Assembly (NCBI RefSeq): GCF_038007465.1 | Contig: NZ_JBBOXF010000001.1 | Span: 1,206,275-1,246,274 of the forward strand | Length of the DNA: 40,000 nt | Direction of reading: 5' to 3' | Source of the DNA: Sporosarcina sp. FSL K6-1508 | GTDB lineage: Bacteria > Bacillota > Bacilli > Bacillales_A > Planococcaceae | In this document: positions 5,047 through 29,042 of the stretch, in pieces | How positions within the stretch are numbered: position 1 is the first letter of the stretch | How the letters are laid out: each line of letters starts with the position of its first letter | Made by a program: the position numbers and the translations under genes | The notes under the pieces: model-generated | Database searches by the model: none | What the model was told of the DNA's origin: nothing | What the model saw: only the letters and a program-made list of their open reading frames with translations

Positions 5047-5525
5047 TGGATGAGAGAGGATGGTGCATGATGAACCAGAAAAAAATAGAGCAATTGATTT
5101 ATAACTATACATTCATGTTAAGAGAAGTGATCCGCTTAGAAAGTATGTACTACGGCATTGATTCCTCTCCGTCAAACAGAGGGGTAGCACAGTATGGGTT
5201 AGAGGCTGCAATGCCGAAAGGGTCGGCAATTCGCAGTAGGGCAGAAATGGACGCGATGGACAGGCGGGAGCTTCGTATGTACAACAGGATAATTGATTAT
5301 AGGGCCAAGATCATCTTAATAGAAGATGCTGCGGAGTTATTGGAGAACGATGTCCACCGAGTTATTTTCGATTGCATGACTGATGGGATGAGTTATCGTT
5401 CCATCGGCCAGCACCTGGGCATGTCGCGGAATAGGTTGAATGAAAGCAGGAATGAAATGATCGAGTTTCTCCTTAACACAAACCACTTCAACCAAAAAAG
5501 CCAAAAAGGCCAAAAAGACCATTAA
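5046..5525 (+). CDS. sigma-like late-gene positive control factor (Xpf/ArpU/RinA-type); start may be 5067/5070
   Basis: About 155 aa and immediately upstream of the packaging genes. The C-terminal segment GMSYRSIGQHLGMSRNRLNESRNEMIEFL resembles a region-4 HTH. The position matches xpf in PBSX. Confidence 0.5.
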   Translation: MDERGWCMMNQKKIEQLIYNYTFMLREVIRLESMYYGIDSSPSNRGVAQYGLEAAMPKGSAIRSRAEMDAMDRRELRMYNRIIDYRAKIILIEDAAELLENDVHRVIFDCMTDGMSYRSIGQHLGMSRNRLNESRNEMIEFLLNTNHFNQKSQKGQKDH

Positions 5526-5583
5526 GGCCAAAAAGGCCATTTGGACCAAAAGGGGCCATTAAGGCCAAAAAGACCAAAAGGGA
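5492..5583 (+). repeat. about ten tandem 9-10-bp units, consensus CCAAAAAGR
   Basis: CCAAAAAAG CCAAAAAGG CCAAAAAGA CCATTAAGG CCAAAAAGG CCATTTGGA CCAAAAGGGG CCATTAAGG CCAAAAAGA CCAAAAGGGA. The array straddles the stop codon at 5523-5525. Confidence 0.8.
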
Positions 5584-8260: not shown

Positions 8261-9677
8261 TAAGCCGTATAAAGTCATGGTTGACCTGATTGACGTGTAC
8301 TGGGATGATCCTGTGGCTTTTGCCGAGGATATTTTAAGCTTCCACCCTGACGTTTGGCAGCGGGATGTATTAAATGATTTAGCGGGCAACCCTTTTGTGT
8401 CTGTCCGGTCCGGCCAAGGTGTCGGGAAGACAAGCGTTGAAGCGGTGGCCGTTATTTGGTACTTGTGCTGCAGGCCGAATTCAAAGATCGTTTGTACTGC
8501 CCCGACTAGGCAGCAGCTGAATGACGTTCTTTGGGCGGAAATCGCCAAGTGGATGGAGTCCTCTCTTGTAAAAAACTTTTTAAAGTGGACCAAGACGAAG
8601 GTGTACATGGCTGGCAACGAAGAGCGTTGGTTTGCCACTGCCCGGACGGCTACTAAACCCGAAAATATGCAGGGGTTTCATGAAGACTACATGTTATTTG
8701 TTGTTGACGAGGCTTCAGGCGTTGCAGATAACATCATGGAGGCGATCCTCGGAACGCTTTCAGGCGCGGAAAATAAGCTGTTGATGTGCGGCAACCCGAC
8801 GAGAACGAGCGGCGTTTTTTATGATTCCCACCACCGGGATCGAGGGGATTATAAGGTCCATAAAGTGAGCAGTTGGGACAGTTCCAGGGCGAGCAAGGAA
8901 AACATCGAGCGCCTCATCCGCAGATACGGAGAAGATAGCGACGTTGTCCGTGTCCGTGTCTATGGTGATTTCCCTAAAAGTGAGCCTGATACATTTATCC
9001 ACCTGGAAAAAGTAGAGGCGGCCACAATGCGGGAAGTTTACGGAGAAGAGTACGGCTTTGCGATCCCGGAAGACGCCCCGCTTGAAATCGGAGTGGACGT
9101 TGCACGGTTCGGGGATGACCAGACTGTCATATGCCCTCGGATCGGTCATTTTGTTCCTTACCTAAAAACCTACAGCAAGCAAGACACGATGGTTACGGCT
9201 GGTAATGCGCTTATGTTGGCAAAGGCCTTAATGTTAGAATACGGCCGTCCTTCCTGCGTTATAAAAATTGACGACGACGGAGTGGGCGGCGGCGTGACTG
9301 ACAGGCTGCGCGAAGTGGTGTATGAAGAGGGCTTGCATATTGATGTTATTGACTGCCACAACGGCGGGAGGGCCATTGACTCAGACCATTATGAAAACTG
9401 GGGCACTGAGTCCTGGGCGACCATTCGTGATTATTTGCACGACGGCGAGATCCAGCTGCCTGATGATGAAGATCTAGTCGGCCAGCTGTCTACTAGGAAA
9501 TACCGAATTACTTCTAAGGGTAAAATACACCTGGAAAGCAAAGATGATATGAAGAAAAGAGGCTTGCGTTCACCCGATAGGGCGGATGCGGTCGTTTTGG
9601 CGTTTGCTAAGACAGGAAAAGAGGCGCTTGACGATGATGTTGCGGCGCTGTTAAGAGGAGTGAGGGTTCATGGCTGA
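8253..9677 (+). CDS. terL: terminase large subunit
   Basis: Walker A-like RSGQGVGKT, Walker B-like LFVVDEASG, and a C-terminal nuclease-like region. 474 aa, between terS and portal. Confidence 0.85.
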   Translation: MSNKPYKVMVDLIDVYWDDPVAFAEDILSFHPDVWQRDVLNDLAGNPFVSVRSGQGVGKTSVEAVAVIWYLCCRPNSKIVCTAPTRQQLNDVLWAEIAKWMESSLVKNFLKWTKTKVYMAGNEERWFATARTATKPENMQGFHEDYMLFVVDEASGVADNIMEAILGTLSGAENKLLMCGNPTRTSGVFYDSHHRDRGDYKVHKVSSWDSSRASKENIERLIRRYGEDSDVVRVRVYGDFPKSEPDTFIHLEKVEAATMREVYGEEYGFAIPEDAPLEIGVDVARFGDDQTVICPRIGHFVPYLKTYSKQDTMVTAGNALMLAKALMLEYGRPSCVIKIDDDGVGGGVTDRLREVVYEEGLHIDVIDCHNGGRAIDSDHYENWGTESWATIRDYLHDGEIQLPDDEDLVGQLSTRKYRITSKGKIHLESKDDMKKRGLRSPDRADAVVLAFAKTGKEALDDDVAALLRGVRVHG

Positions 9678-11172
9678 ATGGATTGATCGGGCTGTCGGGG
9701 AAATGTCAAAGATGCGTGATAGCTTTCGCGGTCGTTTCGGATGGGGAACAACTACCGGAACGCTCGGCGGGGGTTACAAACTCGACAGTTCGCGTGTTGA
9801 TTATGAATTAGCGAAGGCGCTCTATTACAATACCCAGGATGAATATAAGCTCGGCGCCGGCTTTGCCAAGATCATTATTAATAACGCGGTCAGCTTCATG
9901 GGTGTCCCTTCGTTTAAAAGCGGCGACAAAGAAGCGCATGCCGTATTGGAAAAGTTCTTTTTGTCCAATCAATCCAATATGCAAAAAACCACAAGAAACG
10001 GCCTTCGCGATGGCGATTGTTTCGTTTGGATCACTCGTGAAGATGTGAAGGACATGACTCTTTATCCTGAAGAAAAGACCCGTTTGATTTACAACGTCCT
10101 TCCTCCTGGGCAAGTGAAGGAAATTAAAAGAGATCCATTGACCGGCGATGTAGAGGAGTACGTGCTGGTCTCCATTCACGAATGGGAAGATGATCGCAAA
10201 AACAAGAAAAAAGGAACGATTACGCAACGGATCCGGCGGAGAGAGAAAATTATCGAGGTTGAAGGGGACAGACCTCCCGATGTCGAGGTCGGCGCTCATC
10301 CAACGCCTTGGGATTTTATCCCGATTATTCATTTTAAAAATGAGGGGGATGAAGGAGTCTTCGGCCAGTCAGACCTGGAGGCAGTTGAGCCATACCTGAA
10401 GGCCTATCATGATGTCCTGTTGCACGCGATGAAGGGGTCTAAGATGCACAGCACGCCTCGCTTGAAGTTGTCGTTAAAAGATGTGAGGTCTTTCTTGCTC
10501 AATAACTTCGGCGTGACGGATCCTAAGCAGTTCGCTAAAGATGGCGGCGAGATCAATCTTGATGGCCACGAGCTCATTATGCTTACTGATGGGGAAACGG
10601 CGGAATTCATTGAAGCGAGATCAACAACCGGCGACGGTAAGGCGCTGCTGAAGCTCCTGTTTTATTGTATTGTCGATGCTTCAGAAACTCCGGAGTTTGT
10701 ATTCGGTGTCCATACACCTTCCAGTTTGTCTTCAGTTAAAGAGCAAATGCCCATCTTGATCCGTTCAATTGAGCGTAAGAGGGAGCACTTTGTTGATAGT
10801 TGGCAGCGTCTGGCTCGGATCGTCTTGGCTATGACAGCTCACTCGGAGAATAAGCACTTCGAGACGTTTGCCACGGATGTTAAGTGGGCTAATATTGACG
10901 CGAGAACCGGCGAGGAGATTAGTGCTGAGTTGCTGAACATTGTGAATGCGCTTGTTGCTGCAGTTAGCAATAACTTGGCCAGTGACGAGGCTGCCGTTAA
11001 CTACCTGGCCCGACATATCAACACCATGAATGAATGGGAAGTTGATGAGGGGGAGAGTGAGCAAGACCGAATCACGAAGTCTCGCTTAAATAGGTTGCGT
11101 ATGCCGGATACCGAAGATCTCGAAGAGCAGTTGAAGATTATTAATCGGCAGCTCGGGAAGGGTGATGGCTGA
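9670..11172 (+). CDS. portal protein
   Basis: 500 aa, directly after terL with overlapping start/stop, followed by a Mu-F-like head morphogenesis gene. Confidence 0.75.
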   Translation: MAEWIDRAVGEMSKMRDSFRGRFGWGTTTGTLGGGYKLDSSRVDYELAKALYYNTQDEYKLGAGFAKIIINNAVSFMGVPSFKSGDKEAHAVLEKFFLSNQSNMQKTTRNGLRDGDCFVWITREDVKDMTLYPEEKTRLIYNVLPPGQVKEIKRDPLTGDVEEYVLVSIHEWEDDRKNKKKGTITQRIRRREKIIEVEGDRPPDVEVGAHPTPWDFIPIIHFKNEGDEGVFGQSDLEAVEPYLKAYHDVLLHAMKGSKMHSTPRLKLSLKDVRSFLLNNFGVTDPKQFAKDGGEINLDGHELIMLTDGETAEFIEARSTTGDGKALLKLLFYCIVDASETPEFVFGVHTPSSLSSVKEQMPILIRSIERKREHFVDSWQRLARIVLAMTAHSENKHFETFATDVKWANIDARTGEEISAELLNIVNALVAAVSNNLASDEAAVNYLARHINTMNEWEVDEGESEQDRITKSRLNRLRMPDTEDLEEQLKIINRQLGKGDG

Positions 11173-12164
11173 TGGATGAATTCGAAGACCTGGGAAACAA
11201 CACCGGGATATATTTACTTCTTTTGTTGCAGTCCAGGAAGAAGTTGATCGAGTTGATCCTGCGGCAAGATAAGGAGATCCGTCGCATTTACATTGAAGCA
11301 ACGGACCAACTAGCCAGGAAGATCAAGGATCTTGACAAGATTGGCGCGGCCTATCGGATAATGGAACACCTTGACGAATATTTAAGGTTCACATCTGAAG
11401 CTATTGAAAGTAAATTGAAGTCGCTTTTTAGTAGCGGTTTGTCCATTAGTGTTGAGGCGGGGCTGCATCAGTCGAAGCAGACGACGCTATCTTTGCTGAA
11501 GCGCGTAAAAATGGATTGGCAGCCTATGGAGCGTTCTTATTTCAGGGTTCACCACGAAGCTGTGCAAGCTATGGAGTTCAGGACTTTAAAGGGCTTGAAT
11601 CTGTCTGATCGAATTTGGGGGCAGAGTCAAAAAGTAAGAGCTTCGATGGGGACGGTTATTCAAGAGGCTATCGCTGCAGGTGAGCACCCGGTCCGTGTTG
11701 CGGAAATGTTGCAGAGGTATGTAAGGGATGGCGCTAATTCGCTTGTCACGGAATATCCCAATATGATGGATCGGATCGGGGATGGATTGCCGAAAGATTT
11801 GAGTTATGAATCATTGCGGCTTGCCCGTACTGAAATGGCGGCAGCTTACGGTGAAGCTTCAGTAAGATCGGCCGAGCTTAATCCGTCCAATTTGGGCATT
11901 CAATGGAGTTTGTCCAACGCAGGGGTCGCGTGCTCCGTTTGTCAAGATAACGCGGCGCACGACAGCGGTTTAGGTAGAGGCGTTTATAAGTTGGAGGATT
12001 TGCCTGATTACCCAGCTCACCCTAACTGTTTGTGCAACTTGTCCGAGGTCGTGGAAAATACGGACGACTTCCTAGAACGACTCGTTGAATGGAATGCAAA
12101 TCCGCACACGCACCCGGATTTAGAAAGCTGGTACCAGACAGTTTATAAAACAGGAAAATTGTAA
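11172..12164 (+). CDS. head morphogenesis protein (Mu gpF / SPP1 gp7 family)
   Basis: The C-terminal CSVCQDN....PDYPAHPNCLCNL matches the HPNCRC signature of the Mu-F domain. Position is after the portal. Confidence 0.75.
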   Translation: MDEFEDLGNNTGIYLLLLLQSRKKLIELILRQDKEIRRIYIEATDQLARKIKDLDKIGAAYRIMEHLDEYLRFTSEAIESKLKSLFSSGLSISVEAGLHQSKQTTLSLLKRVKMDWQPMERSYFRVHHEAVQAMEFRTLKGLNLSDRIWGQSQKVRASMGTVIQEAIAAGEHPVRVAEMLQRYVRDGANSLVTEYPNMMDRIGDGLPKDLSYESLRLARTEMAAAYGEASVRSAELNPSNLGIQWSLSNAGVACSVCQDNAAHDSGLGRGVYKLEDLPDYPAHPNCLCNLSEVVENTDDFLERLVEWNANPHTHPDLESWYQTVYKTGKL

Positions 12165-12177
12165 GGAGGTTTTTATT

Positions 12178-12552
12178 ATGAGTAGAGTTATCTTTTCTAG
12201 CGAGGAGTTGCAGCGCAGTTTGGAAGAGTGGCAGAAGCGATTGCGCCTTCAAGATTGGATTATAAAGGCTAAAATCGTTCGTGGCAGGGAGTTCGACAAC
12301 GACAACAACCAGGGCGAAATTAGTTGGATCCTAACCAAGAAGATGGCCACGATATTAATATTGGACCCCATCGATTATCCGTCGGATGTGATGGTCTCGC
12401 AGGACATGGAGAATTGCTTGGTACACGAATTACTACACCTGCACTTTGCGCCTATTTCCGAGAGTGATTCAGGCAGTTCGCTTCATGTTGAAATAGAGCA
12501 GGCCATTGAGTCCATTACGTCTGGAATCATATCTAGCATTAGAGGGAGGTGA
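12178..12552 (+). CDS. small protein with HExxH motif (possible metallopeptidase), 124 aa
   Basis: CLVHELLHLHF contains HELLH. AGGAGG RBS. Lies between the head morphogenesis and scaffold genes. Confidence 0.55.
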   Translation: MSRVIFSSEELQRSLEEWQKRLRLQDWIIKAKIVRGREFDNDNNQGEISWILTKKMATILILDPIDYPSDVMVSQDMENCLVHELLHLHFAPISESDSGSSLHVEIEQAIESITSGIISSIRGR

Positions 12553-12556
12553 GAAT

Positions 12557-13738
12557 GTGAATAAGATCTTTATATGCGGAGAAATGGCTGAAAATAAAAA
12601 CAAAGTCTTTCAGCTATTCGGCGGCACGACCGGCGAAATGAAAGCTGATGATATTCCTGCTGCTTCTTCAGTAAATATTGACGAGCTGAAGAAGGGGGAT
12701 ACCGATCCGTTGGAAGTGGTGGTGGAGATCCCGGCCTCGAGATCAAAGCGTGGCTGGAATTATACAGCGGAATCCCTACGGAATATCGTTGACGCAGTTA
12801 ACAGCAGCACGCTGAATGGATTTCTCGGCCATCAGAAACCCGAGGATGTCAGTAATCAGTTTCTTCCCCCTGTCACCCATTGGGTCGGCGCTAAAATGGT
12901 AGGTGAGATTGCTTACTTTAGGGGAGTGGTTGACGCTGCTGCGACGGACCTTAAAAGATGGATCCGTTCCGGCCGTATTAAGCAGGTGTCTATTTTCGGT
13001 ATGCCTAAAATCCAAAAGGTAGCCGGTGAAACAAACGTCATCGGATATAAGCCTATGTCCATCGATTGGACGCCACTTGATCGCGCGGGAATGAATACCC
13101 GTATTGTCGCCATGTCCGGCGAAATGTGGGACTTGGACGGTGATGGTCCGTCCGGTGAAATGGAAACAGGAAAGGAAGGAAAAACAATGAATCCAGAAGA
13201 ATTAATGGCGGCATTAAAAACCATGCTCGCTAACAAACAATTGACAGTCCCGATGATTGCGGGAGAAATGGGTTGGAAGCCAGAAGTTATTGCGGCGGAC
13301 ATTGACCAAAAATGGGCGAATGAAATCACTTCATCTGTTGATAAATTGAAAAAAGTCGAGGAGGCTCTCGGCGTATCCGGTGAAATGGACGTCGTGGCGA
13401 TCGCTACAGATGCAGCGAAAGCATTGAAGCAGCAAGAATCGGCTGGGTTTGAAAAGGTTATCGGTGAAATGATCGGTAAAAAGATTGAGTCCGACGCGAT
13501 CAAGAAAGATATCGCCGACGAGAAGACTGTCATCGGAAAGCTCTGGTCCTATCATTCAGCCGGGATCACTCCTGGAATGACTGAAGAGCAGATGGCTGGT
13601 GAAATGGACTCGTTCCTTGCGGATGAAAGCGTGAAATCTATCATCAGTAACTATCACACAGATGGCCCTGCTTTGCGCGGGACTCCATCGGGTAACCAAG
13701 GCACGTCCAGTTTGAAAACTAAGCGCACGGCGCTATAA
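12557..13738 (+). CDS. prohead protease/scaffold-type protein (XkdF / Mu gpI-like position); GTG start
   Basis: GGGAGGTG RBS 5-6 nt before GTG 12557. Folded N-terminal half plus a charged C-terminal half carrying eight Gly-Glu-Met motifs. Located just before the DUF2190-like and capsid genes. Confidence 0.55.
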   Translation: MNKIFICGEMAENKNKVFQLFGGTTGEMKADDIPAASSVNIDELKKGDTDPLEVVVEIPASRSKRGWNYTAESLRNIVDAVNSSTLNGFLGHQKPEDVSNQFLPPVTHWVGAKMVGEIAYFRGVVDAAATDLKRWIRSGRIKQVSIFGMPKIQKVAGETNVIGYKPMSIDWTPLDRAGMNTRIVAMSGEMWDLDGDGPSGEMETGKEGKTMNPEELMAALKTMLANKQLTVPMIAGEMGWKPEVIAADIDQKWANEITSSVDKLKKVEEALGVSGEMDVVAIATDAAKALKQQESAGFEKVIGEMIGKKIESDAIKKDIADEKTVIGKLWSYHSAGITPGMTEEQMAGEMDSFLADESVKSIISNYHTDGPALRGTPSGNQGTSSLKTKRTAL

Positions 13739-13752
13739 GGAGGGATTTACGC

Positions 13753-14145
13753 ATGGCTTACAAAGGGCAAGCAGCACCAACAACAAGCTACCAAGTATAC
13801 CGCGCTAAAGTATCTGACGGGAAGTCGGTCAAGGTCGCGGTTCCTGCAAGTACAACGATCGATGTCAATAGCTTTTATGAGCTTGGCGGATTTTTCGGGC
13901 CAGCATTCCAGTCGGTTAAGACTAAAGCTGGAGAAACGTCTGAGGTCGTTCTTAATATCGAGCAGGCTGAGTATGAGACGAATCAGATTCAGACGACAGA
14001 GGACTTTGCAGCGGGTGATCCAGTTTACTTCGCTGATGGGAAGTTCACGACCGATCCAACAGACGCCCCCCGTCTTGTTGGCCGAGTTACTGAAGGAAAA
14101 GATCAAAATAACGTCATCTGGTTCATTCTTGGACCACAGGTTTAA
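13753..14145 (+). CDS. DUF2190-like small head protein (decoration/structural)
   Basis: 130 aa, between the scaffold and the major capsid, as recalled for DUF2190-family members. AAGGAGGG RBS. Confidence 0.55.
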   Translation: MAYKGQAAPTTSYQVYRAKVSDGKSVKVAVPASTTIDVNSFYELGGFFGPAFQSVKTKAGETSEVVLNIEQAEYETNQIQTTEDFAAGDPVYFADGKFTTDPTDAPRLVGRVTEGKDQNNVIWFILGPQV

Positions 14146-14160
14146 GGGAGGAGTTAAACA

Positions 14161-15213
14161 ATGAGAATCCATTCAATTGAATCACTAAAAGAAAAGCGTC
14201 GCAAAGGAACCCATGAAGCTGAGGTTCCTTTTTTATTGGACGGAAAAGAAGAGGCTGTCACAAAGAAAATTGTTGACGGTGAAATGGAGACCTATGAGCT
14301 TGGTAAGCCGATTGGCGAAATGCTTACATCGGATATCGTGCGAAAAGAATTGATCCAGAAAGTAGTCCTTGATGTTGAAATGGGACGCGAAGAGGTGCCT
14401 GTACTTTATGGTCCAATCTTTGACCGTATCGAGGATGCTAATTTCCCGAAGGAGTTCGAGGCCAAGTGGGCGCAGCGCGGAACGGTCATCTTCTTCGAGC
14501 ACATCGAAGGTCAAGAGGTCAAGTTCGGCAGCTTGCAGGCTGAGAGCGGCCCAATCGCGCGGCTCAAAGGGTTTTCTGCTGGGTTCGAATATACAAAGGA
14601 AATGCAGATCTTTAACCAGACATTCAACTTTGAAATGTTGAACAAAGCATTTGGTGAAGCGCACAACGCTTTGCTCAACCACTTGCACCTGGGACCGTTC
14701 ATCGGTTACACGTACAAGGCGGCCAATAAAACGGCTCCTGTCTATGTTAAGCCTGACGGCAATAAGGGCACGGCGAGCGATGCTCATTACATCCTATCTT
14801 TACGGGAAACGCTAAGGCAGGCGCTGAAAGATACGCGCACCGCAAAGCGTCCCGGCACAATCCTGCTTGCCAATTCTGCTGACCAGGAGGATATCCAAGA
14901 TGCGCTAGGGAGCATGACGCTTCAGGCGACTCCATACGGCGCCACATCGGGGATTTCCGACATCATCTATTACGACGGTTGGGAGACGGACGTTGCGAGA
15001 AAGTCGCATGCTTATCCAGGAGTGCCACAAGGTAAAGCCTACCTGATTCGTCCTAAGCGCGGATTTAAAGAGCTTGTAAAACAAGGGTTGCAAATCAATT
15101 CGTCAATCGGTGATCTGACTCGTCTTGTTGAGGCTCAAATCGTCGGTGACTTCTGGAGAGGCACATTCTTGGCCATTGATGAAAACGTTCAGGAGATTAC
15201 GCTACCTGGCTGA
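14161..15213 (+). CDS. major capsid protein
   Basis: 350 aa, GGGAGGAG RBS, in the position after scaffold/DUF2190. The N-terminal ~53 aa carry two GEM motifs (possible propeptide). Confidence 0.7.
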   Translation: MRIHSIESLKEKRRKGTHEAEVPFLLDGKEEAVTKKIVDGEMETYELGKPIGEMLTSDIVRKELIQKVVLDVEMGREEVPVLYGPIFDRIEDANFPKEFEAKWAQRGTVIFFEHIEGQEVKFGSLQAESGPIARLKGFSAGFEYTKEMQIFNQTFNFEMLNKAFGEAHNALLNHLHLGPFIGYTYKAANKTAPVYVKPDGNKGTASDAHYILSLRETLRQALKDTRTAKRPGTILLANSADQEDIQDALGSMTLQATPYGATSGISDIIYYDGWETDVARKSHAYPGVPQGKAYLIRPKRGFKELVKQGLQINSSIGDLTRLVEAQIVGDFWRGTFLAIDENVQEITLPG

Positions 15214-15228
15214 TAAGGGGTGACTTAA

Positions 15229-15588
15229 TTGGAGCCGACAGTTATTTTAATTAAAAGATTGCGACTTATGGTGAATGATCCTATTCCGGCCAATGGGACA
15301 GGTTCCCCGTTATTTACTGATGAGGACCTGAGGGTGATGTTCTACGAACACGAAAGTATATTCTCTTTGGCTTCGGAAATTTGGACCATCAAAGCCGGGC
15401 TAATCCAGGGGGATATCCAGTCCTATTCGGCTGGGAATGAAAAGTATGACTTGACGTCAATGAAGGATCGTTACACCCACGCCCTGGCAATGGCGAGGCT
15501 ATATGACGATAAGGCGGAAGCTGAAAAAGATCCAGGCGAGCCGGACACAAGCCTTATATTAAAGTTCCGCACGCCGGACGTGATGTGA
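15229..15588 (+). CDS. head-tail connector protein (XkdH-like position), TTG start
   Basis: 119 aa; synteny only. Confidence 0.45.
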   Translation: MEPTVILIKRLRLMVNDPIPANGTGSPLFTDEDLRVMFYEHESIFSLASEIWTIKAGLIQGDIQSYSAGNEKYDLTSMKDRYTHALAMARLYDDKAEAEKDPGEPDTSLILKFRTPDVM

Positions 15589-15971
15589 TGATGAATCTTG
15601 TCGAAATGCGCAGGCAGCATACGCGGTGGTCCATTGATCAGAACCCGGCTGAAATCATTGTCAAAAGAACGGAAAAGAAAAAAGCTGAGGGCCACATCGC
15701 TGTTGTTGAAACCGATGAAGGTCCTTTTGTTGTACGCGTTTTTGTTTCCAGTTCCAACACGAGTCAAAAAGTCACCACGCTTGCCGGTGAAAAGCAGGTA
15801 GACCGCTATTTTGGCTTGCTTGCAGATCACGAGGCGGATATTCGTGCCGGAACCAACGTTAAAGATGAATTCGAGGCAATGGGGATGAAGTTCCTCGTTA
15901 AGGCGATCTATCCACAAACTATCCACGGTCAGGTAACTGGCTATCAAGGGGAGCTCGAGAGGGTGAATTAA
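15585..15971 (+). CDS. head-tail adaptor/closure protein
   Basis: 128 aa; ATGA overlap with the previous ORF; synteny. Confidence 0.45.
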   Translation: MMMNLVEMRRQHTRWSIDQNPAEIIVKRTEKKKAEGHIAVVETDEGPFVVRVFVSSSNTSQKVTTLAGEKQVDRYFGLLADHEADIRAGTNVKDEFEAMGMKFLVKAIYPQTIHGQVTGYQGELERVN

Positions 15972-15972
15972 T

Positions 15973-16401
15973 ATGACTTTTGGCACTGAAGCAAGAGCGC
16001 ATTTAGACAGAAAGTTAGCCGGCTTGCATGCCCTTGCGGAGAATATCGGGAAAGACATGGAAAAGACCGCTAAAAACAATGCTGCTTGGACTGATCGAAC
16101 AGGCAATACTCGACAGGCGATCCATGGTGGCGCGGATAAAACGGACAAGGGTGCCGTTATCTATTTAGCTCACGGCTCGAAGATCGGTCTTTATCACGAA
16201 ATGGGGACCGGGATATACGGACCAAAAAAGCGGCCTATCGTACCGACGACAGCTCAGGCGCTTCACTTCTCTATTGGTGGAAAAGCCATATTTGCGAAGT
16301 CCATAAAAGGTATGCAAGCGAAGCCTGTCATTGATCCGACCGCTGATAGTAGATGGCCTGATATTAAGCGTCAAGTCAGGTCTTATTGGGGGCGTACCTA
16401 A
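15973..16401 (+). CDS. HK97 gp10-like head-tail joining protein
   Basis: 142 aa. AKNNAAWTDRTGNTRQAIHGG resembles the gp10-family motif. Confidence 0.5.
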   Translation: MTFGTEARAHLDRKLAGLHALAENIGKDMEKTAKNNAAWTDRTGNTRQAIHGGADKTDKGAVIYLAHGSKIGLYHEMGTGIYGPKKRPIVPTTAQALHFSIGGKAIFAKSIKGMQAKPVIDPTADSRWPDIKRQVRSYWGRT

Positions 16402-17238
16402 ATGAGGGGCGCGATAAGGGATATGTTATTGGCTGGCGTACCTATGGTGAAAGGGGAAGTTTGGGAGCCGTCTGCGGCGGGTCCTGATTTGCCGAAACCC
16501 CACCTTGTGCTGCGTGAAGGGGCGCAAAGTAGCGGCGAGGCTTATGCGGATTTCACAACCGTCTATGAAGTTTGGCCGTATGTCGAACGCACGACTTTTA
16601 AGCGCGTTGACGAGCTTTCGAAGGAAGTAATTGGGGCCTTGCATCGTAAGAGGTTTGACGTGCAGGGAATCCCTCATTACATCGAATACGCAGGAACGGC
16701 CACAGAGGACATAGTTGACGAAGAGTGGGACGCGCTCACTCGCGGCCTGCGCTTCCAGGTCTATTCACTGGCCTGGCTGTTGCATGCGCCAATCGATCCG
16801 GATCCTGTCACGGCCATGCGGCTATGGTCTGCCGAAAGATTTCCCGAGCTGCAGACGAATCCGACCGCTTGGTCCCCGTCCAATTCGAACCCTGCACTTT
16901 ATTGGCGGCAAGAGTCTACATCGGCCATCGAGCCGACGAGTTGGGGATCCTGGTTAACTATGCAATTAAGAGGGCACATCATTTCTCCTGATGTGTCTAT
17001 TCGGCGTGTCTATGTGGAGCAAGTCGTGCGAAGGCTTGCGATCGACAACAGAACCTATATGACAGACGGATCAAAGATGAACTTCCAAACGGCGGCAGCT
17101 GACAGCGGCTACGATCCGTTCGGCCAAGGGCAGATAACGCTGACCGTTAAGTTCGGGGTTCTCAAAGATGCGAAAAATTTAAGCTTCCTGAAGCATGTCT
17201 ATTTTGATGAAAAGTTAGGTGGTGAATCCCATGTCTAA
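16402..17238 (+). CDS. tail-completion/neck protein (hypothetical, 278 aa)
   Basis: Synteny, immediately before the sheath. Confidence 0.45.
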   Translation: MRGAIRDMLLAGVPMVKGEVWEPSAAGPDLPKPHLVLREGAQSSGEAYADFTTVYEVWPYVERTTFKRVDELSKEVIGALHRKRFDVQGIPHYIEYAGTATEDIVDEEWDALTRGLRFQVYSLAWLLHAPIDPDPVTAMRLWSAERFPELQTNPTAWSPSNSNPALYWRQESTSAIEPTSWGSWLTMQLRGHIISPDVSIRRVYVEQVVRRLAIDNRTYMTDGSKMNFQTAAADSGYDPFGQGQITLTVKFGVLKDAKNLSFLKHVYFDEKLGGESHV

Positions 17239-17443
17239 AGACAAACAGGTCACGGCGGATCAAGTCAAGAAAGCACTTGTCGCTGAGACCACTTATAAGC
17301 GCGAGGAGATCGAAGCGGCACCGTCTTCTTTCGGTGTGTTGCCAGAGGTATTGGCTGGCGCTTTACGTTTAGTTGATGGCGAGGAATTGTCGAGAAGTCA
17401 GGTCCTTGCGGCTATTGAAAAATTCAAGAAAAGGAAGGTGTAA
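17231..17443 (+). CDS. hypothetical small structural-module protein (70 aa)
   Basis: AGGTGGTG RBS before ATG 17231. Confidence 0.45.
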   Translation: MSKDKQVTADQVKKALVAETTYKREEIEAAPSSFGVLPEVLAGALRLVDGEELSRSQVLAAIEKFKKRKV

Positions 17444-17446
17444 AGC

Positions 17447-18835
17447 ATGTCAATTGGAGCAATGTTTAAGCTCGGTGAACAAAAGATTCGCCCTGGTGTT
17501 TTCGTCCGCTGGTATAATGCCGGCGGGTATAAAAGATACTCGCGGCCACTCGGTGTTTCTGCGGCTGTTATCAAGTCAAACTGGGGGCCGATTGGTGAAG
17601 TTGTCACACTGGATACAGGCGAAGACGTAAAGGATAAACTCGGAACCGGCTTAGGCCCTGACGTGGTTAATGAAATATTCGAGGGCGGCGCTTCGTTCTG
17701 TCACACAGTCAGGATCGGCACAGGCGGCCAACCGGCAGAAGTGGACCTGGAAGCCGAAACCGAAACAGTGAAGCTGCGGACAAAGTACCCCACGTCCAGG
17801 AACTTTAGCGTGACTGTGAGGGAGGCTCTTGATCCTGCATTAAAAGAGATCATTCTGTTTGAAGGCACCCGACAAATTCAGTCGTTAACTTTCGCGAAGG
17901 GTGAAAACGAAGCCTCGGCACTTCTTGAAGTCGTTAATGCGGAAAGTAAATACTTAACGGCCACAACCGCTGGATCCGGTGAAGTAGAAGTCGTCATAAA
18001 TGAACCTCTTTCTGGCGGAGCAGATCCAGATACTGTCGGGGAAGATTACACCGACGGAATGCAGCATCTTGAAACTAAGTTCTTCGACTCGATTACGGTT
18101 GATTCAGAAGACGCCATTATCCACGCTGCACTTCATGCGTTTGTAAGACGAAAAATTCGAGAAGGTTACCGCATGACGATGGTCGTTGGTGAAAAGCCGG
18201 ATGTTTCTTTTGAAACGCGCAAGTCCCACGCCAAGGCCTTTAATGACTTCGCGGTTGTTTATGTAGGGAATGGTGTCGAAACGACGACAGGGGGAATCGT
18301 GGGCGCAACTGCTGCGGCTCGCGTGCTTGGCATGCTGGTCTCTGGGTCCTACAAGTCCAGCCTGACTAAGAACACGATTACAGGCGGTGTTGGTCTTATC
18401 GGTGAAATGACTTCGAATGAATATAACGAAGCGGTTCAGAGCGGGATGATGGTCTTCTCTCTCAATCCGGACAGCATTCCTCAGATTGATTACGGAATCA
18501 ATACCCTTGTTTCCCTTGCTGAAGACGAGGATGAGGGTTGGCAGAAGCTGCGTCGCGTTCGTACTCGCTATGAGCTGATCGACCGTATCGCTATCACGAT
18601 TTCCAAGGCTATGGCGAACAACATCGATAATGGCCACGACGGCAGGCAGTTCGTCATTCAGCTTGCCAATGGCATCATCGGTGAAATGATCGGTGAAGGC
18701 GGATTGGAAAGCGGAGAAATGATTATAGATCCAGTTACATCGCCGCAGGGCGACTCGGCTTGGTTTAAGTTTGACAATCTTGTCGATCTAGATGGGCTTG
18801 AAAAAGCTTATTTGGCGTTCGGGTTTCAGTATTAA
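17447..18835 (+). CDS. contractile tail sheath protein (XkdK-like)
   Basis: 462 aa. N-terminal GEQKIRPGVFVRW resembles the sheath N-terminal motif. Followed by tube, chaperone and tape measure genes. Confidence 0.8.
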   Translation: MSIGAMFKLGEQKIRPGVFVRWYNAGGYKRYSRPLGVSAAVIKSNWGPIGEVVTLDTGEDVKDKLGTGLGPDVVNEIFEGGASFCHTVRIGTGGQPAEVDLEAETETVKLRTKYPTSRNFSVTVREALDPALKEIILFEGTRQIQSLTFAKGENEASALLEVVNAESKYLTATTAGSGEVEVVINEPLSGGADPDTVGEDYTDGMQHLETKFFDSITVDSEDAIIHAALHAFVRRKIREGYRMTMVVGEKPDVSFETRKSHAKAFNDFAVVYVGNGVETTTGGIVGATAAARVLGMLVSGSYKSSLTKNTITGGVGLIGEMTSNEYNEAVQSGMMVFSLNPDSIPQIDYGINTLVSLAEDEDEGWQKLRRVRTRYELIDRIAITISKAMANNIDNGHDGRQFVIQLANGIIGEMIGEGGLESGEMIIDPVTSPQGDSAWFKFDNLVDLDGLEKAYLAFGFQY

Positions 18836-19849: not shown

Positions 19850-19998
19850 CGCTCCTGCACGAGATTTTTCAACGGACCGGGAAATTGCCGGACGAAATCA
19901 TGAATCTTCCTGACGGCATGCGCAAGTTTGCCTTGTTGTCGATGGAGGTTAAGTTGATTGAAGAAAATGAGCGGCGGAAGAACGGAGGGGTAGTTTAA
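19358..19998 (+). CDS. tail assembly chaperone, -1 frameshift-extended form (shift at A_AAA_AAC 19819-19825)
   Basis: The slippery heptamer is in X_XXY_YYZ phase with the 0 frame. The -1 frame is open from there to TAA 19996-19998, which overlaps the tape-measure ATG. No RBS-preceded start serves the downstream frame. Confidence 0.6.
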
Positions 19999-22900
19999 TG
20001 TCGAAGGAAGTTTATCGCATTGAGATCCCTATCGAAACGACCGACAAGTATTCCGATGGATTAAAAAGAGCTGAAAAAGATGTTAAAGGCTTTGAGGATA
20101 CTGCTAAAAAAGCAGCAAAAAGCACCAAGGAACTGGGCAACACGTCCGAGGATGCAGCAAAGAGCGTAAGCAGGGTAGGCAGCTCCGCTCGCGGTTCTGA
20201 AAGAGAAGTCACGAGATTCCAGTCTACCGTTCAAAAAACGAGGGATCGACTCAGATCCCTCACTTCTTCTAGTTGGAATCTGACTGTTCGAGCGGTGGAC
20301 CATGCCACAAGGGTAATCACCGGCGTCAATTCGCTCATCCATCGTACTGCGAACCGGAGCTATAGCTTCACTCTTCGAGCGGTCGATATGGCGACCCGAA
20401 CTTTAGGGGGGATAAAGCGAGCTATAACTAGCATACCGGCTATGGTCACTGTTGCTTTATCCGTTGTCGGGGTTAATAAGTTAAAAGAAGCAACCGTCGG
20501 TGCGGCCATGAATTTTGAGGATTATGGCGTGGCGATGAACCATTGGCTTAAAGGTGATCAGAAGGCTCAAAAAGAACTGATGACCTGGATGGGGCGGAAG
20601 GCGGATAAGACGCCATATAGTTCCGCTGATATTTTCCCAGCCATGACAGGGGCCGTCGCGCTGGCTGGCAACGATCAGAAAAACATACAACGTTTGACGA
20701 GTGCGGCTATTGATATGGCCGCTTTGTCAGGCGGACAGCAAACTGTTGAGGATGCCATGCAGGCGTTAACGAGTGCAAAAATGGGAAACATGACCAGGAT
20801 GAAGCTAGGCTTTAATATGCAAATGTCAAAAAAAGAGTATGACAAAATAGGTTTTAATGGCTTTATAGATCGTGTAGAGGCTGAATTCAAAGGCGGCGCT
20901 GCGGCGTTATCGAAGACGGGTAGAGGTATGCTAAGTACCTTATCAGGGTATATGTCGTCCCAATTCCGTATGCTCGGTGATGGGATCCTGGAAGGCATGA
21001 AGCCGCGATTGCAAGCCATAAATGATTGGCTTGATGATAACCAGGATAAGTGGGGCGCTTGGAAAGAAACGCTCGTCAAGGCTGGTCACGAAGCGTCTGA
21101 GTGGACCTTTTCTAAGTTGGAGAAGGGCTTTGACTATTTAAAAACGAATTATCTCGAAAATGAAGATTTTAAAAACCTGGACTTCAAAGGTAAAATCGGA
21201 TTCATTATGGCTGACGTGTCCGGCTGGTGGAGCGGCACGGCTAAACCTACGCTAGACGCCTGGTGGGAATCGTCAGGCAAACCGTGGGCAGCAGAAATGG
21301 GGCTGACCATCGGAGAGGCGATATTCGAAGGGTTGAAATTAGGCCTCTCGAAAGGCCTTGGCACCCTGGGAGATATGTGGGGCGGTGTGAACGAAACAGC
21401 TAAGGAACATGGTGTGTTTTCTAAGGAAACAGCTACTTCGGCGGGCGGGGCTGGCGTGGCGACGCTTGGCGCTGGCGCTCTGGCGGCCATGGCTTTATCT
21501 CCGCTGTTGAAAGGCGTAGGCGGCATAATGAAGGGCGCGAAATGGGCTGGCGGCGGCTTACTTGGTGCGGGCCAGCGGATAATGGGGGGAGGTAAAGGTT
21601 CAACGCCACCCGTTGTCGCTCCTAATTTAAAACCTAGTAGCGCAGGGAAACCGGAACCACAAAAGGCGTCAGCACCACCAAGGAATACCCCAGTGATCTT
21701 AGATCAACACGGGAAGCCTTTGCCACCTTCAGGTGCGAAACCGGCATCAGCATCGACGCCAGTACCGAAGCCTTCAAAGGCTCCTAAGTTACCGAAAGGT
21801 ATTTCTGGCGCGATGAAAAAACTGCCTTTCCTCGGGACGTTACTCAGCGCGGTAGCAATAACCAATTCAACTAAAGAGGGGCTGCCCGGAGCGATCGGTG
21901 CCTTTGGTGGAGGTATTGCTGGCGCTAAAGGAGGGGCAATGGCGGGGGCTGCTATAGGCTCCGTTGTTCCTGGCGTCGGCACCGCGATTGGTGCAGGGGT
22001 CGGAGGTCTTGTTGGTGGTATTGGAGGTGCCGTTGGAGGGGAGTGGTTAGGCGGAAACTGGGACATCATTAAGGAGAAGGCTGCTGACGTTGCTGGGTGG
22101 ATCGGCACTAAGTTTAATAGTGCACGAGAGGTCACTTCGGCCACTTTACTTAATGGTGAATGGTGGGGCGGAAAGTGGGATTCAATAAAATCCGGAGCGG
22201 AAGCAGCGAGTACCTGGGTAGCCGACAAATGGAATGCGGGATTGGATTCAGTCAAAGGTGGAGCCGACTGGGCAAGTGGAAAGGTTGGTGCTGGTTTAGA
22301 CGCCGTCAAGAGCAAATGGGGAGAAATATCCGGCTGGTTTGATAATACTGTTTGGACCCCCATTTCAGACGGGGCGATAAATGCCATGAACTTCACAGCC
22401 GGCCTCTTAGATATCGGACAAGAATGGGCAAAGGAAAAGTGGTCAAATTTTTCTAATTGGTTCGACGATGCTGTCTGGACTCCTATTTCAGACGGCGCTA
22501 CAGCTGCCGGTCAGTGGATATCAGATAAGTACACCGCATCTAAAGAGCGGGTGCTGGGAACTTGGTCGGACTTTAATCAGTGGTTTTCCGATTCTGTTTG
22601 GGAACCTGTGAAAGAAGGAGCAACCATCGCCGGTCAATGGATATCTGATAGATACGGAGAGGCTAAGGGTTGGGTCCAGGAGAAATGGGGCGATGTTAGT
22701 GATTGGTTTACCGAAGCTATATGGACTCCTATTCAAACCGGGGCTGCCATTTCTGGTCAATGGATATCTGATAGATATACCGAATCGAAGGACTGGATAC
22801 AAGGTGCATGGTCTGACTTTTCGGGGTGGTTCGACGAAGCAATTTGGGCTCCTGTGAAAGAGGGAGCCGCTGTTTCCGGTCAGTGGATTTTTGACAGGTA

Positions 22901-23555
22901 TTCCGAAGCAAGAGACTTCGTACAAGAGTCCTGGTCTGGAGTATCTGGTTGGTTTTCGACCAATGTATGGGATCCGGTAAAATCGCTAGGCGAAGCAGCA
23001 GCCGACGGGATTAAGTCTGCTTTTGATAGCGCGAAAGAAGGAATCACATCCGCATATAATTGGGCAAAAGGAAAATGGGACGACGTCAAGACTTGGACGA
23101 CAGGAGTCACTAAACGAGGAGAGGAAATTACAGGAGTTTCTCCTCGCAAATACGCAAAGGGGACGAATTTCCACCCAGGCGGTCCTGCAATTGTCGGGGA
23201 TGGCGGTGGTCCTGAATTGATCCGTTATCCTGGCGGCGGCTTATCTTTATCCCCTGGGGTGGACACGCTCATGAATTTACCGAAAGGGACATCGGTGTTG
23301 TCCCATCGTGACACCAGAAAAGTGTTCGGCAATGTGCCGGCTTATGCTGACGGAATCGGTTTCCAATCAAGCGCGGCGCCTGCAATTGTCGGAGGTGGCG
23401 GCAGTCCTGCTCCTGTGAGTGCGATCCATGTAAGTGCACCTGTAAGTGTCGCGATCGAGGGATCTGCCACTGATCAAGAAATCATAAATGAAGTGCTCAG
23501 CAAATTCGGCAAAGAAATGACGGCCAAATTGCTGGAGGCGCTTGCTAACAGATAG
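19998..23555 (+). CDS. tail tape measure protein
   Basis: 1185 aa, with a Gly-rich hydrophobic segment and Trp/Phe-periodic repeats. Position is after the frameshifted chaperone. Confidence 0.9.
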   Translation: MSKEVYRIEIPIETTDKYSDGLKRAEKDVKGFEDTAKKAAKSTKELGNTSEDAAKSVSRVGSSARGSEREVTRFQSTVQKTRDRLRSLTSSSWNLTVRAVDHATRVITGVNSLIHRTANRSYSFTLRAVDMATRTLGGIKRAITSIPAMVTVALSVVGVNKLKEATVGAAMNFEDYGVAMNHWLKGDQKAQKELMTWMGRKADKTPYSSADIFPAMTGAVALAGNDQKNIQRLTSAAIDMAALSGGQQTVEDAMQALTSAKMGNMTRMKLGFNMQMSKKEYDKIGFNGFIDRVEAEFKGGAAALSKTGRGMLSTLSGYMSSQFRMLGDGILEGMKPRLQAINDWLDDNQDKWGAWKETLVKAGHEASEWTFSKLEKGFDYLKTNYLENEDFKNLDFKGKIGFIMADVSGWWSGTAKPTLDAWWESSGKPWAAEMGLTIGEAIFEGLKLGLSKGLGTLGDMWGGVNETAKEHGVFSKETATSAGGAGVATLGAGALAAMALSPLLKGVGGIMKGAKWAGGGLLGAGQRIMGGGKGSTPPVVAPNLKPSSAGKPEPQKASAPPRNTPVILDQHGKPLPPSGAKPASASTPVPKPSKAPKLPKGISGAMKKLPFLGTLLSAVAITNSTKEGLPGAIGAFGGGIAGAKGGAMAGAAIGSVVPGVGTAIGAGVGGLVGGIGGAVGGEWLGGNWDIIKEKAADVAGWIGTKFNSAREVTSATLLNGEWWGGKWDSIKSGAEAASTWVADKWNAGLDSVKGGADWASGKVGAGLDAVKSKWGEISGWFDNTVWTPISDGAINAMNFTAGLLDIGQEWAKEKWSNFSNWFDDAVWTPISDGATAAGQWISDKYTASKERVLGTWSDFNQWFSDSVWEPVKEGATIAGQWISDRYGEAKGWVQEKWGDVSDWFTEAIWTPIQTGAAISGQWISDRYTESKDWIQGAWSDFSGWFDEAIWAPVKEGAAVSGQWIFDRYSEARDFVQESWSGVSGWFSTNVWDPVKSLGEAAADGIKSAFDSAKEGITSAYNWAKGKWDDVKTWTTGVTKRGEEITGVSPRKYAKGTNFHPGGPAIVGDGGGPELIRYPGGGLSLSPGVDTLMNLPKGTSVLSHRDTRKVFGNVPAYADGIGFQSSAAPAIVGGGGSPAPVSAIHVSAPVSVAIEGSATDQEIINEVLSKFGKEMTAKLLEALANR
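22317..23054 (+). repeat. six tandem 123-nt (41-aa) repeats inside the tape measure gene
   Basis: Units start with TGG at 22317, 22440, 22563, 22686, 22809 and 22932. Consensus W-s-d-f-s-x-W-F-d-x-a-v-W-t-P-i-x-x-G-A-x-x-a-G-Q-W-I-S-D-r-Y. Confidence 0.85.
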
Positions 23556-25507: not shown

Positions 25508-25977
25508 CAGAGCAATTATACCCGTCGTTTGACTCTCCTGATTTAATGGCCGGCGAGCAGATCGAGAGCCTGGAAGAAGTTCATGCGGCAAAGTTTGATC
25601 TTGAAGAAGGGAAATTAGTCGTTACCGGCGTCGGCAAGGTGATCACCGGCAATCCGGTAGACGCTTATCGCTTCTGGGCTATTAAATGCTGTTTAACCGA
25701 GCGGTATCAGTATGATGCGTACAGCTCGGATTTTGGCGTTGAGTTCCAGCGGATTGTAGAAGCGAATTATCCACGGCCAATTGCCGAGAGTGAAATAAAG
25801 CGAACGATCACCGAGGCTTTAATGATCGATAGAAGAACTGTGTCCACTAGCGCTTTTTCTTTTGAGTGGCAGGGTGATTCTTGTTGGATATATTTCCAGT
25901 TAGAAAGTGTATATGGCATCGATCATATCGAAATAGTTAGGGGTGGTGAATTGAGTGGTAGAGTTCTCGCTGCCTGA
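25504..25977 (+). CDS. baseplate protein (XkdS-like)
   Basis: ATGA overlap; 157 aa; synteny. Confidence 0.5.
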   Translation: MTEQLYPSFDSPDLMAGEQIESLEEVHAAKFDLEEGKLVVTGVGKVITGNPVDAYRFWAIKCCLTERYQYDAYSSDFGVEFQRIVEANYPRPIAESEIKRTITEALMIDRRTVSTSAFSFEWQGDSCWIYFQLESVYGIDHIEIVRGGELSGRVLAA

Positions 25978-28947: not shown

Positions 28948-29042
28948 ACGGCTCGAACCGTGTCAATCGCGGCAACAACTCAGCTCGTAACTTCAACAAC
29001 ACGACTGCTTCGAATCGCAATGTGAACATCGGTTGGCGCCCG
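28948..29042 (+). repeat. DGR template repeat (TR), 95 bp
   Basis: Ungapped match to 30803-30897 (offset 1855), 84/95 identical. All 11 mismatches are at TR adenines. Non-coding location between avd and the RT. Confidence 0.9.

Follow-up and report, generated by a model that had tools for sequence, protein, structure and literature searches.

Introduction

Prohead proteases whose short cleavage motifs end in glutamate are already well known. In phage T4, gp21 cuts after Glu in the motif L/I-X-E, degrades the scaffold protein gp22 and removes the propeptide of gp23 (PMC9026906), and it is also reported to cleave nine residues from its own N-terminus (PMC9958956). The proteases gp175 of phiKZ and gp245 of SPN3US cut after Glu in S/A-X-E, and the propeptides on which they act carry redundant sites (PMC9026906, PMC10052503). 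Here, we analyzed a stretch of 40,000 nucleotides (nt) of Sporosarcina sp. FSL K6-1508 (contig NZ_JBBOXF010000001.1, positions 1,206,275 to 1,246,274), hereafter the window, which includes the head and tail genes of a phage. One of the head genes encodes a protein of 393 amino acids (aa) that we call the protease-scaffold; its family has no Pfam or NCBIfam model and is nearly nameless in the databases. The tripeptide Gly-Glu-Met (GEM) recurs in this protein, in the major capsid protein, in the portal and in the tail sheath, and it is encoded each time by the nine-mer GGNGAAATG. Our results suggest that GEM is probably the recognition and cleavage signal of the protease-scaffold, a predicted serine protease with the fold of T4 gp21 and the assemblins, that the copies in the sheath are unrelated to it, and that the uniform GAA codon of its glutamate results from a codon-pair bias.

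Results

Distribution of the motif in the window

The nine-mer GGNGAAATG was found 15 times on the + strand of the window and once on the - strand. Fourteen of the + strand copies are in frame and encode GEM (Table 1), at all the positions given by the original prediction in the portal, protease-scaffold, capsid and sheath genes, and with the same Gly codons upon recount (GGT 7, GGC 3, GGA 3, GGG 1). The other + strand copy (22679) is inside the tape-measure gene and out of frame, and the copy on the - strand (16980-16988) is antisense to a gene. Dinucleotide shuffles produced 2.45 +/- 1.65 such nine-mers by chance on the two strands together; the highest count was 7, and none of the 100 shuffles reached 16. 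The value of 0.6 per strand that had been put forward earlier was about two-fold too low, which leaves the conclusion on enrichment unchanged.

The enrichment is also clear in the proteins. The 42 open reading frames (ORFs) of the window, with 11,244 residues, contain 14 GEM against 1.74 expected (P = 5e-9), and no other tripeptide is as over-represented. When the expectation was computed from each protein's own composition, the excess was strongest in the protease-scaffold (8 against 0.14, P = 3e-12), and was also found in the capsid (2 against 0.06, P = 1.5e-3) and in the sheath (3 against 0.11, P = 2e-4, 37 of 200,000 shuffles). The single copy of the portal (0.09 expected) is not significant alone. 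Both the tripeptide and the nine-mer are thus strongly enriched in the window.

A predicted protease domain fused to a scaffold-like domain

The mechanical ORF of the protease-scaffold begins at TTG 12506, still inside the upstream gene. Its start is most likely the in-frame GTG at 12557, because the upstream ORF ends at 12552 and a Shine-Dalgarno sequence (GGGAGG, 12544-12549) is found 7 nt before this codon. With this start, the first GEM corresponds to residues 8-10. The protein has no match in Pfam, even at E <= 10 and with either the whole protein or the isolated domain, nor in NCBIfam, and its sole family match is phrog_3219, of unknown function. As a profile search of PDB also failed to retrieve a protease (see Discussion), we regard it as a separate sequence family. 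There are 901 homologues in the protein database, and the named entries among the best 120 of them are called 'hypothetical', except for one 'transcriptional regulator'.

We built an AlphaFold2 (AF2) model of the protein from 65 homologues. It has an alpha/beta protease domain with high values of the predicted local distance difference test (pLDDT, 84-92), a disordered linker (residues 189-211, pLDDT < 50) and a C-terminal domain made of helices (213-367), modeled with lower confidence, whose sequence is weakly conserved except at the GEM columns. When the protease domain was compared with PDB using Foldseek, the top match was T4 gp21 (5jbl, E = 1.7e-3, probability 1.0, TMt 0.54-0.57), followed by the herpesvirus proteases, or assemblins, of pseudorabies virus, KSHV and HCMV. 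The predicted viral structures of BFVD gave 153 matches at E <= 1e-3, and the named ones are nearly all proteases of prohead or capsid maturation, two entries bearing instead the name major capsid protein. The modeled N-terminal domain thus has the assemblin (herpesvirus-protease) fold. Five of its residues, H92, H108, S145, S168 and D170, are invariant in the 65 homologues, and this makes them candidate catalytic residues.

The genetic context fits these structural matches. The genes are ordered as portal, MuF-like gene, an ORF of 124 aa, protease-scaffold, decoration protein and capsid, which is the position of a prohead protease, and the order portal, MuF-like, protease-scaffold, decoration, capsid is the same in BalMu-1, in phiMMP02 and in the closest relative (L024). 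The portal is homologous to gp45 of the Clostridioides difficile phage phiCD508 (PDB 9gb3, E about 1e-156). Because of the modeled fold, the head-gene neighbors and the label of 'capsid protease' given to its phiCD508 homologue gp47, we interpret the 393-aa protein as a probable prohead protease fused to a scaffold-like domain.

The eight GEM of this protein concentrate at its N-terminus, at the boundary between its domains, and in the scaffold domain. The N-terminal segment (residues 1-26) is disordered in the AF2 model; G26, E27 and M28 are at least 90% conserved, and phiMMP02 and most relatives also have an N-terminal site. At the end of the protease domain, G188, E189 and M190 are invariant in the 65 sequences, and the variant lineages described below have TGQM, ATQM, TNEM, ASEM or GHEM at this place. 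In the scaffold half, where the GEM sites are the best-conserved columns, G275, E276 and M277, as well as G303 and M305, are at least 90% conserved, and E304 and E349 are invariant. Six of the eight sites (those starting at residues 8, 26, 188, 200, 236 and 275) are in, or adjoin, disordered segments or domain boundaries of the model.

Conservation in the head proteins

GEM is the top tripeptide of the best 120 homologues of the protease-scaffold, with 833 copies, five to eight in each, in the context [IVLM]-[ASVCT]-G-E-M-[DGWAS]. The dipeptide GE is followed by M in these 833 of about 1,170 cases, the exceptions being mainly two conserved GE inside the protease domain. The extended signal would be [I/V/L/M]-[A/S/V/C/T]-G-E-M. 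A profile search of 1.84 billion cluster representatives retrieved 586 members of the family, and most of the representatives at 50% identity also have GEM as their commonest tripeptide.

Eleven Bacillales prophages (L004-L014) show the same pattern, and so do three phages that were found by DNA similarity, and not via the motif. BalMu-1 has five GEM in the scaffold, two in the capsid, GEI in the portal and none in the sheath. The C. difficile phage phiMMP02 has five GEM and two GEI in the scaffold, three GEM in the first 56 residues of the capsid, GEI in the portal and none in the sheath. The Bacillus subtilis phage BSTP5 has five in the scaffold and two in the capsid; in the locus that was read, the portal was not found and there is no sheath gene.

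The capsid sites are conserved as well. Site B is part of a P-x-G-E-M string (residues 50-54), with an invariant P50, in all of the 117 full-length homologues, and site A is GEM in 94 of them, while none has a GEM past about residue 60. At the N-terminus of the portal, the string AVGE[M/I]SKLR is present in the 14 loci, out of 14, with a readable N-terminus. Overall, the alignment columns that hold the sites stay conserved in homologues of as little as 40-50% identity, across Bacillales and Clostridia, and the motif is found in the predicted capsid propeptide, repeatedly in the scaffold, and in the protease itself. Counting the motif in related prophages had been proposed as a check on its conservation, and the count shows that GEM is conserved across the homologues of the head proteins.

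Co-variation between scaffold and capsid

Some distant lineages have replaced the motif, and they did so in two proteins of the same genome. One of them (L015) has four GQM and two GQV in the scaffold, and AGQM and TGQM at the two aligned sites of the capsid. Another (L017) has four SQM in the scaffold and TQM at the domain boundary, with FSQM and VSQI in the capsid. The portals of these two genomes, the only Q-type lineages, have no matching motif. In a third one (L019), the scaffold has seven sites of the type S/T/A/N-E-M, the capsid has AEM and QEM, and the portal has VSEM. Finally, the GEL-rich scaffolds of L013, L020 and L022 go with GEL at capsid site B; the portal of L013 has GEI, and those of the other two were not read. 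The signature thus switches from Glu to Gln at P1 (GQM, SQM), from Gly to Ser or Ala at P2, and from Met to Leu at P1', with the capsid propeptide matching the scaffold. One further lineage (L023, P0493) has no clear motif and a short capsid N-terminus, and is uninformative. The comparison leaves out L018 and P0433, for lack of DNA or of a contig long enough. Matched changes in two proteins of one genome imply that a single reader recognizes both, and the obvious reader is the protease domain carried by the same polypeptide as the scaffold motifs.

Codon usage and repeats at the motif

Glutamate is encoded by GAA in 14 of the 14 motifs, as stated in the original prediction, but this is not specific to the motif. 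Within the 42 ORFs, Glu before Met is encoded by GAA-ATG 38 times and by GAG-ATG once, the ratio being 24:1 outside GEM. The hexamer GAGATG/CATCTC is depleted on both strands of the window, with 4 occurrences against 16-22 expected (z about -3.1), and is the ninth most depleted hexamer. We thus rejected the GAA of the 14 copies as a motif-specific signal: its uniformity is a local nucleotide-level bias, apart from the motif. The depletion of GAGATG could be caused by restriction-site avoidance or by a codon-pair effect. The relatives use GAG at the motif, and this includes the closest one, whose protease-scaffold and sheath are 85-87% identical to those of the window. Both the Gly and the Glu codons vary freely at the motif in the relatives, where all four Gly codons are used, and the earlier argument that varying Gly codons reveal selection at the protein level therefore holds.

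We also confirmed, at both places, that a scaffold site (13460-13477) and a sheath site (18677-18694) share one and the same 18-nt string. A column-permutation test of this identity, which had been noticed post hoc, gave P ~ 0.04 for the shared flanking residues and about 0.005 for the same codons. In the closest relative, the two strings are GTCGGTGAAATGATCGCT and ATTGGTGAAATGATCGGT, which differ at 4 of the 18 positions. Sequence exchange between the two genes was rejected, since the homology does not extend into the flanks, the closest relative lacks the identity, and the window has other repeats of at least 16 nt. Exact direct repeats of 16-22 nt are found at 29021-29042 and 30876-30897, at 25758 and 30660, and at 5506-5561, one of them in the tail-fiber region, so the 18-nt repeat is not unique and we treated it as a coincidence. 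The tape-measure gene (19998-23555) also contains tandem repeats of about 41 aa (W..W F...VW.PI..GA...GQWISD.Y, at 22600-23000 of the window), which are seen as DNA repeats of at least 16 nt at 22632 and 22755.

The motif in the tail sheath

The sheath (462 aa) differs from the head proteins in the conservation of its motifs. There is no GEM in 93 of its 120 homologues, three have three copies and 13 have two. The column of the first site is GEL in 49 homologues and GEM in 5; that of the second is mostly QTM, NQM or GQM, and GEM in 5; at the third, GEM is the commonest state (25), next to GQL, GAH and others. Given these counts, and since GEM is what the clade already has in the third column, the sheath of the window differs from common states by one L-to-M and one Q-to-E substitution. 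Of 13 relatives with a sheath homologue, 11 lack GEM in it, and among the loci without sheath copies are five (L005, L007, L008, L010 and L012) with the same head module and the same type of sheath. The sheath model has a pLDDT of 89.9 and places the copies in a short loop, in a helix (397-417) and in a strand (420-427) of the core, within blocks of 10 residues with mean pLDDT of 88-93. In the sheath, the motif is thus neither conserved along with GEM-type heads nor accessible. The original prediction had already remarked that these sites misfit a protease model, and we regard them as a coincidence, that is, as unrelated structural residues, with a small residual doubt.

Table 1. Coordinates of the genes, domains and motif sites discussed in the text. 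Positions refer to the window.
Feature	Position	Strand	Remarks
Portal N-terminus, A-V-G-E-M	9670..9705	+	GEM at 9697-9705, residues 10-12; possible cleavage site
MuF-like gene	11172-12164
ORF of 124 aa	12178-12552	+	between the MuF-like and protease-scaffold genes
Prohead protease-scaffold fusion gene (predicted), 393 aa	12557..13738	+	start revised to GTG 12557; homologue of phiCD508 gp47
Two N-terminal sites	12578..12640	+	G8-E9-M10, 12578-12586; G26-E27-M28, 12632-12640; predicted self-cleavage
Protease domain (model), residues ~30-188	12644..13120	+	alpha/beta
Domain-boundary sites	13118..13162	+	G188-E189-M190, 13118-13126; G200-E201-M202, 13154-13162, in linker
Helical scaffold-like C-terminal domain (model), residues ~212-367	13190..13657	+
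Four scaffold-domain sites	13262..13606	+	13262 (residue 236), 13379 (275), 13463 (303), 13598 (348)
Major capsid protein gene, 350 aa, HK97 fold	14161..15213	+	PDB 9gay chain A, E = 1e-114; phrog_3116; homologue of phiCD508 gp49
Predicted 53-residue capsid propeptide	14161..14319	+	includes sites A and B; predicted mature N-terminus M54
Capsid site A	14278-14286	+	residues 40-42, Met at 42
Capsid site B	14314-14322	+	residues 52-54, Met at 54
Three sheath copies	18401..18721	+	18401 (residues 319-321), 18680 (412-414), 18713 (423-425); judged outside the system

Discussion

Our study shows that a short motif ending in glutamate, first noticed as a likely target of a maturation protease, is concentrated in the head proteins of this phage and of its relatives. 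The fold of the modeled protease, the conservation of the sites, their position and their co-variation between proteins give strong comparative support to that proposal, although not proof; that cleavage takes place, and which bond is cut, would follow by analogy. The analogy with T4 gp21, phiKZ gp175 and SPN3US gp245 would place the cut after Glu, once the prohead is assembled. The protease would trim its own N-terminus after E9 and/or E27, losing a peptide of 9 or 27 residues and thereby activating itself, and a cut after the invariant E189 would release it from the scaffold domain. The linker and the scaffold domain would be chopped after E201, E237, E276, E304 and E349 into short peptides able to exit the shell. 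In the capsid, cuts after E41 and E53 would remove the propeptide of 53 residues and leave M54 as the mature N-terminus. The portal might also be clipped by 11 residues, after E11, although it is a less certain substrate than the protease-scaffold and the capsid.

In many members of the family (L020 90-1940, L021 682-2094, P0361, P0369, P0373-P0378 and others), an extra N-terminal domain of about 110-140 residues, with a conserved ...GGL.A..AALSGAR.EP... string, precedes the first cleavage-type motif. The predicted N-terminal cut would release this domain.

The solved structure of phiCD508 offers a way of confronting this model with data on a homologous capsid. Its capsid asymmetric unit has 2,877 modeled residues (7 x 411), with 411 for each pair of gp49 and gp48. 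Since gp48 is 127 residues long and its N-terminal arm is resolved (PMC11948020), about 284-291 of the 345 residues of gp49 are modeled. By this residue count, which does not use the coordinates, the gp49 model would start at about residue 55-62, and the numbers fit residues 56-345 of gp49 (290) plus about 121 of the 127 of gp48. This agrees with a mature chain whose first residue is M56, the Met that follows the last GE, or lies shortly behind it.

Several points weigh against a cleavage signal. The residue count of phiCD508 is the same whether the N-terminus was cleaved or is disordered. Processing goes unmentioned in the phiCD508 paper (PMC11948020) and in a review, and we found in the literature no cleavage data for phiCD508, phiMMP02 or BalMu-1, nor a publication describing a cleavage motif for this protease-scaffold family. 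The protein matches none of the Pfam families Peptidase_S77, Peptidase_S78 and Peptidase_S78_2, a search of PDB with hmmsearch and the profile of 65 sequences gave no match to a protease, and the best Foldseek match in PDB has a modest E-value (1.7e-3). The candidate catalytic residues were chosen by their invariance, not by residue-level superposition on T4 gp21. A strict Met at P1' is unusual for proteases of the assemblin fold, and the sites at residues 303 and 348 are inside predicted helices of moderate confidence. The portal did not switch its motif in the GQM and SQM lineages. Finally, three of the six peptide patterns used to retrieve the eleven prophages L004-L014 contain GEM, which biases that set; the motif played no part in retrieving the other data sets, but the profile that gave the 586 representatives was built from GEM-type homologues.

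An alternative is that GEM would be a docking or assembly motif, a short linear peptide through which the scaffold domain and the N-arm of the capsid protein bind a common pocket, in the capsid interior, the portal or the protease, and which directs proteins to the prohead but is left uncut. Conservation and co-variation reveal a shared partner and not cleavage as such, two sites are within predicted helices, and 12 peptides of gp47 were detected by liquid chromatography and tandem mass spectrometry in phiCD508 virions, so that some of this protein stays in the particles (PMC11948020). Yet, the motif is on the same polypeptide as a protease domain similar to T4 gp21, and a final Glu is also what the known cleavage motifs of this fold have (PMC9026906, PMC10052503). 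An invariant copy is exactly at the boundary between protease and scaffold, and two are in the disordered N-terminus of the protease, which recalls the self-activation of T4 gp21 (PMC9958956). The capsid residues upstream of site B appear to be missing from the solved phiCD508 model, and redundant sites in a propeptide are typical of cleavage (PMC9026906). We thus find docking unlikely. It is much harder to attribute the motif to chance, to compositional bias or to a duplication that took place recently within the scaffold gene. Repeats and a high Glu content are common in scaffold proteins, but the excess was computed given the protein's own composition, the flanks of the sites are unrelated in sequence, and column-wise conservation at 40-50% identity in both Bacillales and Clostridia already refutes these explanations, to which we give practically no credence.

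The remaining alternatives concern the nucleotide sequence and the sheath. The 14 copies share eight fixed bases, including GAA, and GGNGA resembles part of a Shine-Dalgarno sequence. Nested starts of scaffold genes are known in other phages, such as lambda (C/Nu3) and Mu (I/Z). The nine-mer might thus be an internal ribosome-binding site with its start codon, from which nested products would arise, or else a site recognized in the DNA. We rejected such signals, whose probability seems to us next to nil: the relatives use GAG as well as GAA and all four Gly codons, Met is replaced by Ile, Leu or Val at many sites and the whole motif by SQM, SEM or GEL in other lineages, so that both the start codon and the purine run are lost, the gap of just 2 nt between GGNG and ATG does not suffice for a Shine-Dalgarno sequence, all but one of the 15 copies on the + strand are in frame, and GAA is also the codon in 24 of the 25 Glu-Met pairs outside GEM. 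As for the sheath, its copies would be functional if the head protease, or another reader of GEM, coupled head maturation to tail assembly. Three copies in this protein are unlikely under the shuffles, they recur in a clade of close sheath relatives, and one shares 18 nt with a scaffold site. Against this, most homologues lack them, including those of BalMu-1, phiMMP02 and the five loci with the same module, each site is one conservative substitution away from a frequent state (GEL to GEM, GQM to GEM), and the 18-nt identity is lost in the closest relative. Furthermore, the copies are in a confidently folded core, so that cutting them would destroy the sheath, and tails are known to assemble outside the prohead. 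We therefore consider a function of the sheath copies very improbable. Slightly less remote, and still quite improbable, is the more radical idea that, in the present branch of the family, the sheath acquired the same signature and is read by the head protease as well. Proteolytic cleavage of the head proteins at GEM thus remains our preferred explanation.

The annotation of this family deserves some attention. In NCBI and UniRef, many homologues of the HK97-fold capsid protein bear the name 'aspartate ammonia-lyase', and the protease-scaffold homologue of BSTP5 (L003 673-1818) is annotated as 'repressor protein cI'; both are probably mis-annotations. The 124-aa ORF upstream of the protease-scaffold encodes a HExxH-like string (VHELLHLHF) and has no match in Pfam, PHROGs or NCBIfam. 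The closest relative also has an ORF of 124 aa at this place (L024 1685-2059), whereas BalMu-1 and phiMMP02 have none.

If GEM is cleaved as we propose, a function (prohead protease and scaffold) and a cleavage rule can be assigned to a family without Pfam or NCBIfam match that spans prophages of Bacillales, the Mu-like BalMu-1, phages of B. subtilis and phages of C. difficile, one of which has a solved structure. By this rule, the mature capsid protein is predicted to begin with M54 in the window and with M56 in phiCD508 and phiMMP02. With its strict signature of three residues, switched several times, this large and unannotated clade would amount to a natural experiment in protease specificity. 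The co-varying motifs GEM, GQM, SQM, SEM and GEL would then be ready pairs of enzyme and substrate to study how specificity evolves in the assemblin fold. The general picture of phage head maturation is unchanged.

Comparison with known systems

An N-terminal protease and a C-terminal scaffolding function in one gene, as fusions or nested genes, are known from P2 (gpO), lambda (C/Nu3), Mu (I/Z) and HK97 (gp4). In P2, the capsid, the portal and gpO itself are all processed, and the C protein of lambda is ClpP/S49-like. The protease-scaffold would have the same architecture, but the proteases of P2 gpO, lambda C, Mu I and HK97 gp4 are of other families and specificities, and their Pfam families do not match it.

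The best structural match, T4 gp21 (MEROPS S77), has no detectable similarity in sequence or profile with the protease-scaffold. Both motifs are short and end in Glu, and an aliphatic or small residue occupies P3 (or, here, P4). Many cuts in the scaffold, the removal of a capsid propeptide and the self-cleavage of about nine residues are features of T4 that are predicted here, E9 being the first site. The differences are that the scaffold gp22 of T4 is a separate protein, that in the motif of the window Gly is also constant at P2, as is Met (or I/L/V) at P1', and that the portal is not among the listed substrates of gp21 (PMC9026906). The T4 head is also prolate (PMC9026906), whereas the present capsid is T=7, with a predicted propeptide of 53 residues. 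The predicted Glu specificity, a small residue at P3 (here A, S, V, C or T) and redundant propeptide sites are shared with phiKZ gp175 and SPN3US gp245, and for SPN3US a figure panel gives the sequence coverage of the portal (PMC10052503). These are giant phages with dozens of substrates, unlike the present one, where credible substrates are limited to the protease-scaffold and the capsid, with the portal as a possible third.

Another close system is phiCD508, with solved structures of homologues of the capsid (9gay, 1e-114) and of the portal (9gb3), and the proteins of phiMMP02, near-identical to those of phiCD508, carry the motif in the gp47 homologue (five GEM and two GEI) and three times in the first 56 residues of the capsid protein. 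In the description of phiCD508, gp47 is a 'capsid protease' and the MuF-like gp46 a 'capsid scaffold'; neither cleavage sites nor mature termini are reported, and the motif and a scaffold role of the C-terminal half of gp47 are not described (PMC11948020). Our comparison suggests instead that the C-terminal half of the gp47 homologues is a scaffolding domain, and the rule proposed here predicts that the actual scaffold is this part of the 'capsid protease'.

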